DNA from: Gammaproteobacteria bacterium
Lineage (GTDB): Bacteria; Pseudomonadota; Gammaproteobacteria; CAJXQU01
Direction of reading: 5' to 3'
Assembly (NCBI GenBank): GCA_965238175.1
Contig: CBDEGZ010000003.1
Location: 384,001-448,000, forward strand
Length of the DNA: 64,000 bases
The notes beneath the pieces are model-generated. The model was not told where the DNA came from and did not search any database. It worked only from the letters and a program-made list of their open reading frames with translations. Below, in pieces: positions 7,746-11,920 of this stretch (positions within the stretch are counted from its first letter, which is position 1; each line of letters opens with the position of its first letter). Position numbers and translations under genes: made by a program.

Positions 7746-9872
7746 ATGTCAGTACAAATGAAAACAACAGCTCATGGTGGCTGCCCGCACGATTGCCCTG
7801 ATACTTGTTCCATGGTTTTTGAGGTTGAAGATGGGAAACTTACCGGCGTAAAAGGCAACCCCGAACACCCAATGACCCGAGGTGGTCTTTGCGTCAAACT
7901 AAAAGATTACGAGAAACGGCACTACCATCCAGATCGTCTTTTGTGCCCGATGCGTAGAACGGGTCCAAAAGGTAGCAAGCAATTTGAAAGAATTAGCTGG
8001 GATGAAGCGTTAGATACGATCACAGATAAATGGAAAGCAATTATCGAAGAAGATGGTCCGCAAGCAATCATGCCTAATAGCTATCTTGGGCATCAGGGGT
8101 TGGTTCATGGTTTAAACGGTGGTGATGCATTCTTTAACAGGATGGGTGCTACCGTTACTGAACGAACATTTTGTGGCGAAGGATCATGCACAGCCTGGCT
8201 ATCCACAGTGGGGCCAACTGCAGGTGTCGATCCAGAAAGTTTTATTCACTCAAAATATATAATAATTTGGGCGTGTAACTCTGTAAGTACAAACCTACAT
8301 CATTGGCATATTGTCAACCAAGCTCAAAAGAAAGGTGCAAAAGTTGTTGTGATTGATTCTTTTGCATCAAGAACCGCGAAAGAGGCTGATTGGCATATCG
8401 CACCAAAACCTGGGACCGATGGCGCTCTGGCAATGGCGATGATGCAGGTGATAATCGAAGAAGGATTAGTCGATCAAGATTATGTTGATAACTATACCGT
8501 AGGTTATGCAGAGCTTGCCGAACGAGCTAAAGATAAAACCCCAGAATGGGCCGCTGAGATCACTGGTATTTCCGCAGATGATATCCGTACATTTGCCCGT
8601 GAGTATGCAACTACGCAACCTTCGGCCATTCGTATCGGTGTTGCATTAGAGAGAAGCTTTGGTGGTGGCCAGACAATTCGAGCTGTTACCTGCCTTCCTG
8701 CATTAACAGGTGCCTGGCGACATGTTGGCGGTGGTATTTTGCAATTTCCTGTTTGGGAACATCCTTACAAATTTGATGTGATTTGTCGCCCTGATTTGAT
8801 CCCTGAAGGGACTCAAGTAGTTAATAATTTACAAGCTGGTAGAGTCCTTACTGGTGAAACAAAGCTTGAAACACCTATCAAATCGATGATGGTCTGGAAT
8901 ACAAACCCAGTAACACAAGCACCTGAGACAGACAAAATTGTTGAAGGTCTGAAAAGAGAAGACTTATTTACAGTCGTGGCAGATCATTTTATCTCTGATA
9001 CAGCCGCTTATGCAGACATTGTATTGCCAGCATCGATGGGTGCTGAGATGGAAGATATGATCTTGTCATGGGGACATCTTTACCTGACTTATAATGCTAA
9101 ATGTATTGAGTCTCCTGGAGAAGCGATCCCGAATAATGAGATCTTCCGACGTCTGGCTGTACGTATGGGTTTCGAGGAAGAGAACTTCAAGTGGTCAGAT
9201 TCGGAATGTCTTGAAAACTATGTGGATTGGGATTCACCAGCCTGCGAAGGAATTGATCTGAATTACTTAAAAGAACATGGTTATGCTCGATTAACAGTTG
9301 GAACTAAAGATGATCGTGCACCACATAAAGAAGGCAATTTTCCAACGCCATCTGGTAAGTGCGAATTCAAACTCGCTGATGGTGCGACTAACTTTGTTGC
9401 AGGTCCATTTCGTCAGATGTATGAGGGTTTTCAACCTGGTGAATTACTTGATACATTGCCGGATTATGTACCATCAAGAGAGACACCTGAAACAAACCCT
9501 GAGCTTGCCAAGAAATATCCTCTTAACATTATATCTCCAAAGAGTCATGGTTTTTTGAATTCGTGTTATGCGAATATAGAGAATAAGATAAAAGGACAAG
9601 GAGAACAGTTTGTCATGATTAATGCGATTGATGCAGCGCAGCGCGGTATTAAAGAAGGCGATACCGTACAAGTGTTTAATGATCGTGGTGCTTTTGAAGG
9701 TGATGCTAAAATCACAGATGATGTGAACGCCGGTCTTATCGTTGCTACGCTTGGTTATTGGCGCCAGCTAAATACTGGGACAGTTAACAGTATTAGTTCA
9801 GCTGAGTTTGTTGATATGGGTCATGCACCGACATTTTCAGATAACTTGGTTGAAGTGAAACTTGCCGGATAA
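7746..9872 (+). CDS. Molybdopterin (bis-MGD) oxidoreductase, cytoplasmic, substrate unknown
   Basis: CPHDCPDTC...C 4Fe-4S motif, FERISWDEALD, PGTDGALA, SDTAAYADIVLPA, C-terminal MGD-binding domain; no Tat signal. Confidence 0.88.
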   Translation: MSVQMKTTAHGGCPHDCPDTCSMVFEVEDGKLTGVKGNPEHPMTRGGLCVKLKDYEKRHYHPDRLLCPMRRTGPKGSKQFERISWDEALDTITDKWKAIIEEDGPQAIMPNSYLGHQGLVHGLNGGDAFFNRMGATVTERTFCGEGSCTAWLSTVGPTAGVDPESFIHSKYIIIWACNSVSTNLHHWHIVNQAQKKGAKVVVIDSFASRTAKEADWHIAPKPGTDGALAMAMMQVIIEEGLVDQDYVDNYTVGYAELAERAKDKTPEWAAEITGISADDIRTFAREYATTQPSAIRIGVALERSFGGGQTIRAVTCLPALTGAWRHVGGGILQFPVWEHPYKFDVICRPDLIPEGTQVVNNLQAGRVLTGETKLETPIKSMMVWNTNPVTQAPETDKIVEGLKREDLFTVVADHFISDTAAYADIVLPASMGAEMEDMILSWGHLYLTYNAKCIESPGEAIPNNEIFRRLAVRMGFEEENFKWSDSECLENYVDWDSPACEGIDLNYLKEHGYARLTVGTKDDRAPHKEGNFPTPSGKCEFKLADGATNFVAGPFRQMYEGFQPGELLDTLPDYVPSRETPETNPELAKKYPLNIISPKSHGFLNSCYANIENKIKGQGEQFVMINAIDAAQRGIKEGDTVQVFNDRGAFEGDAKITDDVNAGLIVATLGYWRQLNTGTVNSISSAEFVDMGHAPTFSDNLVEVKLAG

Positions 9873-9978
9873 GCGAGAACGATAATAGAGTTTTTGATCC
9901 ATCGTCTTGTTGCGAAATAAGTCGATGGATCTTACTTAACCTGAGCTCGGGGTAAGAATTCATATATGGTCTCCTCCC

Positions 9979-10208
9979 GTATTGCAAGATAAAACATTCA
10001 GATAACAGGGACAGGATTGCTGTCATATATACGGCCTTCAATGAAGTTTTCAACTTCTGACCTGGATGTATTACGCGCCTATTTTCCTTATCAGGTTATC
10101 GGTATTAGTTACCCCTGAGCTCGACAGGTTTTCAATAGGCTGGTTTGACCTGTTATGCCATCTTTAGTTTTACCTTCGCAATTCGTTGAAATGATTTGTT
10201 CTCTCTAT
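9979..10208 (-). ncRNA. Putative bridge/seek RNA of the IS1111-group element
   Basis: Target-matching segments (10114-10123, 10091-10098) and circle-junction-matching segments (10065-10070, 10023-10030); each pair is separated by a hairpin; exact RNA ends unknown. Confidence 0.72.
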
Positions 10209-11222
10209 TTAGGCCGGTGAGTAGTCATCACCAGAAACCGTTATAGCCCAGGCCATTCTTGCCATTTTGTTGGCATACGCCACACACGCTCGATTATGCC
10301 CCCGCGTCTCAACTAAACGATTAATCCATTGACTCAGTTTATCGCCTTTCGTTTTGGCTCTTGATACCACGGCCTTCGCGCCTAGAATTAACAAACAACG
10401 AAGGTATTTATTGCCGCGTTTACTGATCCCCAGTAGCACCTCTTTACCACCACTACTGTACTGTCGTGGAACAAGTCCTAATGAGGCGGACACATCGCGC
10501 CCTTTGTGATAATGAGCGCCGTTTCCCACTTCATTAAAATACGCGCTCGAGACCATCGGCCCAAACCCTGGAATAGTTTGTAAACGTTGGCAAATCGCAT
10601 TGTTTTTTGCCGATTGAATGATCAATTGGTCAAATGTCGCAATACAGGCATCAAGTGATTGCCATTGTTCCTTTAGCTGGCGCAGTATCCTTTTGAAAGT
10701 AACGGACAACCGTTCGTTCTCATCACTTAATAGCAACGGGATAGATTGACGTAGGGTATTTAGGCCGGGACGAAGGCTAATGCCATATTCTGCAACAAGC
10801 GCTCTCATTTGGTTACATAATGCGGTTCTTTGTCTGACCGCTAAGTCTCTTGCTTTATGTTGTGCCTGGTTGTCTTGTTGCTCAACTGATTTAATGCCCA
10901 CACTTTTTAAATGAGGTTGTTTCGCAGCAACGGCGATGGCCAAGGCATCGTTATAATCATTCTTATTGCCGATTAGAAATGCGTTAACATGCTGAGGTGG
11001 TAGTAATTTCACCTGATGTCCCTGTTGTTGTATCGCTCGGGCCCAATACTGTGACGTTGCACAAGATTCTATTGCGACTAAACAAGGAGGTTGAGATTGA
11101 AAAAAGGAGAGTACCTGCGCTCGCTTTAACATTTTCTTTTTGATTATACGCCCTTGTTGATTACAGCAGACAGCATGAAATACGTTTTTTGCTATGTCTA
11201 ACCCGATTGTTGTAGTCTTCAT
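10209..11222 (-). CDS. IS110-family DEDD recombinase/transposase
   Basis: IGLDIAK, AIESCA, KNDYNDA (DEDD tetrad), catalytic SSGG; start set to ATG 11222 after AGAGGAG RBS. Confidence 0.95.
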   Translation of the reverse strand: MKTTTIGLDIAKNVFHAVCCNQQGRIIKKKMLKRAQVLSFFQSQPPCLVAIESCATSQYWARAIQQQGHQVKLLPPQHVNAFLIGNKNDYNDALAIAVAAKQPHLKSVGIKSVEQQDNQAQHKARDLAVRQRTALCNQMRALVAEYGISLRPGLNTLRQSIPLLLSDENERLSVTFKRILRQLKEQWQSLDACIATFDQLIIQSAKNNAICQRLQTIPGFGPMVSSAYFNEVGNGAHYHKGRDVSASLGLVPRQYSSGGKEVLLGISKRGNKYLRCLLILGAKAVVSRAKTKGDKLSQWINRLVETRGHNRACVAYANKMARMAWAITVSGDDYSPA

Positions 11223-11542
11223 TTTGGTCTTCTCCTCTTTTGATTGTGTGTATGTCAGTTCAATCATGGCACCTAGATGCCGTTAGGGGGAGGAGACCAT
11301 CACATCAGGTTAAGTAATGCTGACATATTAACGAGCACTCCGATGATTATTTTTACTCGATCATATCGGACAACAACGCAGATAAAAATGGTGATTTTGG
11401 AGAGGAATGGTTAACGTTTCAAAGTTCTCTTATAGAACTTTCAACTAATGCCACACCATAATTTCGAGCATAGCGGCCACAATAACCAGAATAAACATCA
11501 AATTGTTACTGTAGGCCAAATGTTAACTCCTAATTCTTTGAG

Positions 11543-11920
11543 TCAATTTAACGTATTAGGTACAGCTAAAGTAAATGGTGGAATGTTTGCCATAAAATGT
11601 TCCTGATCATCATTGATCATTAAATATTCTCCTTCCATACATCCAATAGATGTTTCTAGTATGGCTCCACTGGTATATCGAAAAGCCTCACCAGGTTGTA
11701 ACAAAGGTTGTTCTCCAACAACACCTTCACCTCGCACTTCTTCAATTTTTCCGTTTGCATCAGTGATCATCCAATGACGATCGAGTAGTTTTGCTGCAAT
11801 ATTTCCTATATTAGCTATGGTGATGGTATAGCTAAAAACATATTGGTTGTTTTCTGGTATTGATTGCGATTCTAGATAAGTAGTATCAATGTTTATACTA
11901 ATGTCATTAATTTTAGTCAT
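11543..11920 (-). CDS. apaG: ApaG protein
   Basis: YVFSYTITI, RHWMITD, VRGEGVVGEQP, YTSGA; start set to MTKIND. Confidence 0.93.
   Translation of the reverse strand: MTKINDISINIDTTYLESQSIPENNQYVFSYTITIANIGNIAAKLLDRHWMITDANGKIEEVRGEGVVGEQPLLQPGEAFRYTSGAILETSIGCMEGEYLMINDDQEHFMANIPPFTLAVPNTLN

Follow-up and report, generated by a model that had tools for sequence, protein, structure and literature searches.

A multicopy IS1111-group insertion sequence and the predicted guide RNA encoded downstream of its recombinase gene

An insertion sequence (IS) on the minus strand at positions 9963-11307 of the window, by which we mean the whole stretch of 64,000 nucleotides that was analysed, raises the question of whether its recombinase is led to the target by an RNA that the element itself encodes. 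A preliminary description, made from the letters of the window alone, had proposed an IS1111-type element of this extent with four readable guide segments. We compared the element with its other copies in the host genome and with its relatives. We consider it very probable that it is an intact and recently active IS1111-group IS, with a recombinase directed by a structured RNA from the 246 nt of non-coding DNA that follow the gene.

The element and its recombinase

The whole element is 1345 bp long when one copy of the TG core is counted and assigned to the left end, and all 24 full copies and one truncated copy in the host genome end at exactly the same bases. Together with the protein and the repeats, the 24 full copies bear out the proposed element at 9963-11307 and its minus-strand orientation. 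Read on the minus strand, as are all the features below unless stated otherwise, the window copy meets its flanks at ...TTACTTAACC|TGATGTGATGG on the left and at ...GACCATATA|TGAATTC on the right. The IS starts with TGATGTG-ATGGTCTCCTCCC and finishes with GGGAGGAGACCAT-ATA, so written that the subterminal inverted repeats of 13 bp stand out: the left one, ATGGTCTCCTCCC (11288-11300), which is conserved in most relatives, lies 7 nt inside the left end, and the right one, GGGAGGAGACCAT (9966-9978), lies 3 nt inside the right end. The core TG is found at 11306-11307 at the left junction and, as the flank copy just outside the element, at 9961-9962 at the right junction, where it is TG in all 24 copies. 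At 11308-11312 (positions -5 to -1 relative to the core) stands the left target half, TAACC, which reads TAACC in 23 of the 24 copies and AACC in all of them. The non-coding regions measure 85 nt upstream of the transposase gene and 246 nt downstream of it.

The one long open reading frame of the element (10209-11222) encodes a transposase/recombinase of 337 amino acid residues, with GAGGAG 8-9 nt before the ATG. The protein contains the Pfam domains PF01548 (E = 3e-16) and PF02371 (E = 6e-20), and it scores 302.9 bits against the NCBIfam model NF033542, 'IS110 family RNA-guided transposase' (cut-off 140). When it was aligned with 29 relatives, D9, E52, D89 and D92 were invariant wherever the aligned relative has a residue; in the same 30-sequence alignment, residue 257 was S in 25 sequences and T in two, and residue 258 was G in 26 and A in one. 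The latter two residues close the sequence GLVPRQYSSG (residues 249-258), which is the GL-P----SG motif of this transposase. The C-terminal domain matches the PDB structures of IS621 and ISCro4 (E = 2e-4) with the SG aligned to SG, and we take S257-G258 and the DEDD residues to be the counterparts of the catalytic residues of IS621.

For the IS1111 family, Siddiquee et al. list a transposase of 330-350 amino acid residues, the motif GL-P----S(t)G, subterminal repeats of 7-17 bp and a longer non-coding region downstream (PMC11187229), and the element shows every one of these sequence features. As in the IS1111 group, a single target sequence is used in a single orientation (AACC|TGA at 24 of 24 copies). 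Judged from its sequence, the element is an IS110-family member that belongs to the IS1111 group and has a DEDD transposase; this assignment, which had already been proposed, is supported by the Pfam and NF033542 matches, the subterminal repeats, the downstream non-coding region, the length of 337 amino acid residues, the motif and the order of the guides described below.

A two-armed RNA and its guide segments

When the downstream non-coding region was folded, as the preliminary description had suggested, the predicted structure (-61.3 kcal/mol, z = -2.6; a fold as stable was reached by 2 of 200 shuffles) was a scaffold with two arms that is conserved across relatives. The scaffold, closed by an ACAGG/CCTGT stem, occupies 10009-10155 and scores 164.8 bits with our covariance model R1; its outer stems extend to about 9979-10183 and enclose the junction that gives rise to both arms. 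According to the fold and the comparative structure, the target-binding arm (10077-10140) consists of a basal stem, GCCUAUUG/AAUAGGC, followed by an internal loop and by a hairpin, GGUA-ACUAA-UACC (10101-10113), which stands between the two target guides and has compensatory changes in three of its four pairs among relatives. The donor-binding arm (10019-10076), drawn on the same two kinds of evidence, has a GC/GC base, an internal loop, a GGUC/GGCC stem and a hairpin, GAAGUU-GAA-AACUUC (10043-10057), in which two of the four scored pairs show a compensatory change. Both hairpins had been placed correctly from the window alone (GGTA..TACC at 10113-10101 and GAAGTT..AACTTC at 10057-10043), and the four guide segments named at the same time turned out to form the two internal loops, each segment being one strand, at the positions given for them (CGAGCTCAGG at 10123-10114, TAACCTGA at 10098-10091, TACATC at 10070-10065 and ATATATGA at 10030-10023).

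The RNA was aligned with those of 8-9 relatives whose proteins are 68-78% identical to the window protein (from Colwellia, Shewanella, Halioglobus, Paraglaciecola, Pseudoalteromonas and MAGs). In this alignment the scaffold is almost invariant and two blocks are sharply variable. The structure as written, with 30 pairs in seven helices, is 97.8% paired in these 8-9 relatives, with seven compensatory pairs, and none of 500 shuffles equalled it; when the structure was slid along the alignment as a control, pairing dropped to 31-38%. The covariance model R1, built from the core of the structure, located this scaffold on the 3' side of the gene at 79 of 80 loci of relatives, and the lone miss was a 749-nt contig that ends inside the gene. 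R1 also matched (60 bits) 3' of a gene about 45% identical on an Enterobacter plasmid; the plasmid genes of about 45% identity are annotated just as 'IS110 family transposase'. The Rfam covariance models gave no match in window positions 9700-11600 at E values up to 10, and Rfam 15 appears to be without a model that fits the RNA of 10009-10155.

The two strands of the internal loop in the target arm correspond to the target's two strands. The 5' target guide, CGAGCUCAGG (10114-10123), is complementary to the top strand of the target and would pair with it, and the 3' target guide, UAACCUG(A) (10091-10098), is identical to the top strand from -5 to -1 plus TG and would pair with the bottom strand. 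The complement of the top strand thus stands 5' of the guide for the bottom strand, as it does in the published IS1111 seekRNAs (PMC11187229).

For a covariation table we used the 58 of 81 model hits in which both ends could be located via the conserved subterminal repeat, which gave 51 distinct guide pairs; the other 23 hits were dropped for a missing end, a contig run-off or different repeats, among them the distant relatives L103, L105, L107 and L109, which have different ends. At the non-core positions, the guides agreed with their own targets in 484 of 612 cells, and shuffled targets gave a mean of 193 (sd 13.5, maximum 243), none of the 2000 shuffles reaching 484. In the 5' guide, the covarying part (10115-10123) reads -1, TG and +1 to +6 and agrees with its own target at 0.71-0.94 per position, against 0.26-0.87 with the targets of other families, where the values are 0.26-0.43 but 0.87 at an invariant G. 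The 3' guide agrees with its own target at 0.78-0.98 and with those of other families at about 0.3, apart from 0.5 and 0.96 at the two core positions. Relatives with other targets (L031, L035, L036 and L060) carry other guides at the same loop positions.

Because both target guides covary with the flanking DNA, 13 positions of the target appear to be programmable, and in this element they would be TAACC-TG-AGCTCG; the target predicted earlier, TAACC-TG-AGCTC(G), is the one to which the two covarying blocks of the guides point. The term 'reprogrammable' would apply here solely in the sense of the natural swaps of guide and target among relatives. In the 8-nt segment described earlier as the guide for the left half of the target, the identity to TAACC and TG covaries and was retained, and the trailing A (10091) proved to be a non-programmable base.

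This A also bears on the size of the core, which had been given as TGA. The base that follows the core in the 3' target segment agrees with its own target at 0.27 and with the targets of others at 0.25, and it shows no covariation; moreover, in relatives the base that follows TG or CG is unlike between the left and the right junctions. Since the post-core base neither covaries nor agrees between the junctions, we regard the core as the two bases YG, TG in this element, and not as TGA. The A after the core is fixed both in the RNA and in the left end, and here it coincides with the first right-hand base of the target. In several relatives, the left junction has the TG of the element and the right junction has the CG of the target, and the reverse was never seen among them.

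In the donor arm, the 5' donor guide UACAUC (10065-10070) pairs with G-ATGTG of the top strand of the left end, including one G-U pair, and the 3' donor guide AUAUAUG(A) (10023-10030) is identical to ATATA plus TG of the right end. We examined 41 distinct combinations of guide and end (42 were found, one of them without the segment). Position +4 of the left end can pair with its RNA column in 40 of the 41 combinations (T:A in seven and A:U in 33), and the T:A state occurs in the subclade of the window element and in the distant relatives L079 and L099. Position +5 is pairable in 34 of 41, and the core base of the 3' donor segment (T or C) is that of the right-junction core in 37 of 41. Note that this test is thin because the ends hardly vary in the clade, so that, besides the core, the donor covariation comes down to a single position with perhaps three independent switches. 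The donor guides proposed from the window alone are in this way borne out at the left-end position +4 and at the core, on thinner evidence than the target guides, and with the trailing A again non-programmable. The comparison supports the view that the second arm is a true donor loop.

A different reading, which we consider unlikely, is that the RNA guides the choice of target alone, that the second arm is a scaffold or a processing substrate, and that the ends are bound by the protein via the subterminal repeats. In its favour, an 82-nt seekRNA of ISEc11 with the target matches alone moved the element better than the long form did, and the ISEc11 authors leave open which domain binds the ends (PMC11187229). 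In addition, there is hardly any variation in this clade in the loops of the donor arm or in the ends, so that conservation by itself cannot separate pairing from protein binding, and the 5' donor guide of the window element pairs over six nucleotides, one of which is in the G-U pair. Against it, left-end position +4 changes in step with its RNA partner, with one mismatch in 41 combinations, also in the distant L079 and L099, and the core base of the 3' donor segment follows the core. Moreover, donor guides for three IS1111-group elements were drawn, by inspection, by Durrant et al. (PMC11208160). We therefore retain the reading of the second arm as a donor loop as the more probable one.

Proposed mechanism, spread and insertion sites

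What the analysis established is the anatomy of the element, its copy number and site specificity, how its RNA is structured, and the covariation of guides with target and with donor. These findings suggest the following course of events, in which the expression of the RNA, the circle, the promoter and present-day activity are predicted from sequence. In the target arm, the 5' segment would read the top strand (-1, TG and +1 to +6) and the 3' segment the bottom one (-5 to -1 and the core). The donor arm would read the joined element ends in the same geometry, namely ATATA-TG of the right end and TG-ATGTG of the left end. The element would be excised as a circle, the joining of its ends would create a promoter, TTGCAA-17-TATGAT, to drive the recombinase gene and the RNA behind it, and the circle would then recombine with the target at the TG core. 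The predicted -35 half, TTGCAA, is at 9982-9987, and 17 nt further on the joined ends read TATGAT, where the integrated copy has TATGAA. In the integrated copy, a scan of the minus strand gave no promoter-like site ahead of the RNA (4 sites against 3.1 expected). The predicted promoter across the joint and the scan of the integrated copy fit the junction-promoter model described by Siddiquee et al. (PMC11187229).

The host assembly (3.35 Mb in three contigs) contains 24 full copies of the IS, one copy cut by a contig start and five fragments. The identity among the copies is at least 99.85%; a synonymous C at element position 724 (window position 10584, Arg213) is the sole difference from the window copy in the other full copies (counted as 23 of the 24), apart from a second change at position 1271 in one of the copies with this C. 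All copies encode the same intact protein, and 23 of the 24 encode the same RNA. In the likely source run, the sequencing depth is 37.8 on the IS contig and 2-2.6 on the flanks. The high identity of the copies implies a very recent spread. Because the element is absent from five of the six congeners searched (the remaining one has an 84%-identical right-end fragment) and has no counterpart in the 24 genomes searched that belong to other families in the class, the expansion looks lineage-specific among the genomes searched. Another IS, of 1.23 kb, has more than 60 copies in the host genome, and with the 25 copies of the present element it marks a genome in the course of IS expansion.

That the burst is a fossil, the element being intact yet immobile or having spread largely via homologous recombination and segmental duplication, strikes us as quite improbable. 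The 30-mers that flank the 24 sites on the left are all distinct and those on the right comprise only 18 distinct sequences; right flanks are common to copies whose left flanks differ, and the 24 sites may be partly non-independent, with recombination between IS copies reshuffling the flanks. At three copies the neighbour is the end of the 1.23-kb IS; one flank of 900 nt recurs at three copies, and two have 900-nt flanks that are 100% identical to each other. Neither a contig with the joined right and left ends of the circle nor one with an empty site was present among the assembled contigs of four runs, which by their nature cannot show absence. Two of these runs, from strains with the same species label that seem to be without the element, contain next to none of its sequence words: no contig of X4 matched, and X5 contained only a diverged relative. 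Speaking for recent activity are the 24 distinct left flanks, the one intact protein in all copies and the RNA shared by 23 of 24, and the very recent spread that the identity of at least 99.85% and the five congeners without the element suggest. We thus keep to the reading of a recently active element in what follows.

The sites of the other genomic copies, whose comparison had been proposed as a check, are not unrelated to each other: all 24 full copies are inserted at AACC|TGA, and 23 of them at TAACC. We scored the 24 sites against the guide-predicted 13-mer TAACC-TG-AGCTCG, numbered from the core TG. The agreement was 23 of 24 at position -5, complete (24 of 24) at each position from -4 to +1, and then 3 of 24 at +2 (where 19 sites have A), 16 at +3, 22 at +4, 17 at +5 and 14 at +6. 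By blocks, 191 of 192 cells agree from -5 to +1 and 72 of 120 from +2 to +6. A perfect match to the guide was found at none of the 24 occupied sites, which have one mismatch in nine copies, two in eight, three in five, four in one and five in one. The right-target guide covaries with the targets among relatives and yet is mismatched at +2 in most real sites, the guide having C opposite A in 19 of the 24 insertions. It is one base off the main supply of targets, with C where the A-containing sites need U, and the closest relatives (L033, L037 and L057) have U at the guide position that faces +2.

The only perfect match to the guide in the genome is an empty site, TAACCTGAGCTCG, on the plus strand at 9937-9949, that is, on the opposite strand within the right flank of the window copy. 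The 10-nt complement reported earlier fits this empty site, 15 bp away, and misses the right flank of the window copy itself. Among the uninterrupted sites in the genome are this one perfect 13-mer and three copies of TAACCTGAACTCG.

On the right, the most frequent flank is the beginning of a repeat of about 215 bp whose ends are inverted copies of TAACCTGAACTCGGGATAAGAA. This repeat is a MITE-like element, and the IS is inserted 5 nt inside its tip. The targets in the host genome are the short palindromic tips TAACCTGAACTCGGGATAAG of this repeat and solo look-alikes of them; the remaining copies are in solo look-alike hairpins or abut the end of the 1.23-kb IS. Relatives in Colwellia, Pseudoalteromonas and Paraglaciecola occupy similar sequences, TAACC|TGA...GG.TAAG. 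An autonomous transposon with the target as its end was also considered and rejected: at the copy at C3:116798, the right flank consists of ordinary genes (presumably pst/phoU-like, to judge by the starts of their ORFs alone), and there is no inverted partner within 4 kb.

In the window copy taken singly, the guide matches are just modestly above chance. Scored on its own flanks, the longest stretch exactly complementary to the target has 5 nt, a length that 4996 of 5000 shuffles reached, and the longest identity is 8 nt, which 249 of 5000 reached; all four matches jointly, scored with the commonest genomic target and the non-coding region minus its last 30 nt, were equalled in 3 of 5000. Note that these single-sequence tests are weak, being confounded by the palindromic ATATAT and by the mismatched right flank of the window copy; the claim of RNA guidance is decided by comparison, because AACC|TGA is occupied at 24 of 24 copies and the guides covary across relatives. 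That the matches are chance and the protein chooses the target, as the ease with which shuffles reach the 5-nt complement might suggest, has next to no likelihood in view of the 484 of 612 agreeing cells and of the relatives that have changed target and guide together.

The unequal agreement of the two target halves (191 of 192 cells against 72 of 120), the empty perfect site and the one-way asymmetry of TG and CG at the junctions of relatives lead us to raise, as a tentative and rather doubtful possibility, that recombination of the IS1111 type has its anchor in the left target half, with the strands crossing 5' of the core or with a biased resolution of mixed cores. The crossover geometry of IS621 is unlike such an arrangement for IS1111. 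If it were true, tools derived from the IS1111 group would follow different off-target rules.

Relation to known systems

With ISEc11, ISKpn4, ISPst6 and ISPa11, as far as they are described in the material used from PMC11187229, the element has in common a DEDD protein of about 340 amino acid residues, the motif GL-P----S(t)G, subterminal repeats and a long downstream non-coding region. As in the ISEc11-type seekRNAs of that material, the complement of the top strand lies 5' of the match to the bottom strand and the two matches overlap in the target, and close relatives have been re-targeted naturally, as ISEc11 and ISXne4 have (PMC11187229). It differs from the four elements in having its own target and guides and in belonging to a clade outside those tested according to the same part of the paper, in which the donor covariation of the second arm seen here is unaddressed (PMC11187229).

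IS621 and ISCro4 (PDB 8wt6 and 9t56), in so far as they are covered by the passages of PMC11208160 considered, share with the element an RNA of two loops, each of which reads both strands around a 2-nt core, the DEDD residues together with Ser-Gly, and a circle intermediate, which is predicted here. By the same passages, they are unlike it in that their RNA lies 5' of the gene, whereas here it lies 3', and in that the order of the strand-specific guides is reversed (PMC11208160). Further differences from IS621 and ISCro4 are the long subterminal repeats of the present element and a protein similarity that is detectable in the C-terminal domain alone. The core of IS621 is CT, against TG here.

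The element is a clear but ordinary case of a mechanism that was described in 2024, and knowledge of the mechanism is unchanged by it. RNA-guided recombinases of the IS110 and IS1111 groups are under development as genome-writing tools, and the element offers a compact enzyme of 337 amino acid residues with a fully mapped guide register and 13 putatively programmable target positions. About 50 natural relatives re-targeted on one scaffold accompany it, and from its 24 natural insertion sites one can read at which positions of the guides a mismatch is tolerated. The element is chiefly of value as a natural data set for the guide register and for mismatch tolerance.

The choice of target has a counterpart in the IS1111 family. 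According to what Partridge and Hall are said to have reported in 2003, IS4321 and IS5075 of this family insert at a fixed position and in a fixed orientation inside the terminal inverted repeats of a mobile element, and the use of the inverted repeats of other elements as a target is in this respect a known habit of the family. The targets of IS4321 and IS5075 are the ends of Tn21-family transposons, and the target here is the tip of the MITE-like repeat of about 215 bp.

Core dinucleotides at the two junctions of the relatives

When the junctions and guides of the relatives of the IS1111-group element (window 9963-11307, minus strand) were compared, the core dinucleotide was found in several of them to differ between the left and the right junction in a consistent direction. 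The pattern with TG at the left junction and CG at the right junction was represented by eight distinct combinations of guides and ends, and the reverse pattern (CG left and TG right) was found in none of the compared relatives. Eleven relatives (loci L083, L086, L056, L059, L077, L088, L058, L093, L100, L094 and L108) have TG at the left and CG at the right, and in all of them CG also stands in the RNA segments matching the target DNA and the element's end (the two target guides and the 3' donor guide, respectively). Two other loci, L071 and L076, have TG at the left and TA at the right. The element seems to retain its own core at the left junction while the core of the target remains at the right; a symmetric exchange with a 2-nt stagger would not produce such a split consistently.

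Palindromic targets and the MITE-like repeat

Without the insertion, the target of the window copy (9931-9962 joined to 11308-11319) is a palindrome with a 14-bp stem, CTTACTTAACCTGA ... TCAGGTTAAGTAAG. The copy occupies the arm with the poorer fit to the guides (three mismatches), and the arm with the perfect fit is empty.

Elsewhere in the genome, a MITE-like repeat of about 215 bp (83-98% identity) has the inverted tips TAACCTGAACTCGGGATAAGAA, and one tip is occupied by the IS1111 element in most copies of the repeat. It was found at C3:2509901-2510103, C3:2362007-2362189 and C3:2864940-2865104 (C3 denotes coordinates on a contig of the host genome, outside the window numbering) and in the right flanks of about seven IS1111 copies. 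A search for an autonomous parent of this repeat, including the right flank of the IS copy at C3:116798, found none, with no inverted partner within 4 kb.

Relics, shared flanks and a second insertion sequence

Two tiny relics of the element (C3:1393265-1393345 and C3:1154716-1154810) are both flanked by TAACC ... GGTTA. One is a perfect 66-bp palindrome in which the left end's first 40 nt are joined to their own inverse, and the other is a unit of about 91 bp with the left end on one side and a left-end-like inverse on the opposite side. Both look like collapse products of two head-to-head copies inserted in both inverted tips of one repeat. A decayed relative (C3:2357911-2358383; 79% identity over the first 390 nt and broken beyond) lies in the same TAACC|TGA site as the element, indicating that in this genome an older lineage of this IS family had the same target.

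The copies at C3:116798-119042 and C3:1170729-1172973 share a right flank that is 100% identical over 900 nt and have unlike left flanks, which points to a recent duplication bounded by the IS, or to copies having recombined with each other. Several IS1111 copies have within 40 nt a second IS of about 1.23 kb (for example, C3:946623-947851), of which the genome carries more than 60 copies with 98-100% identity. Together with the 25 IS1111 copies, this abundance is the mark of a genome in IS expansion.
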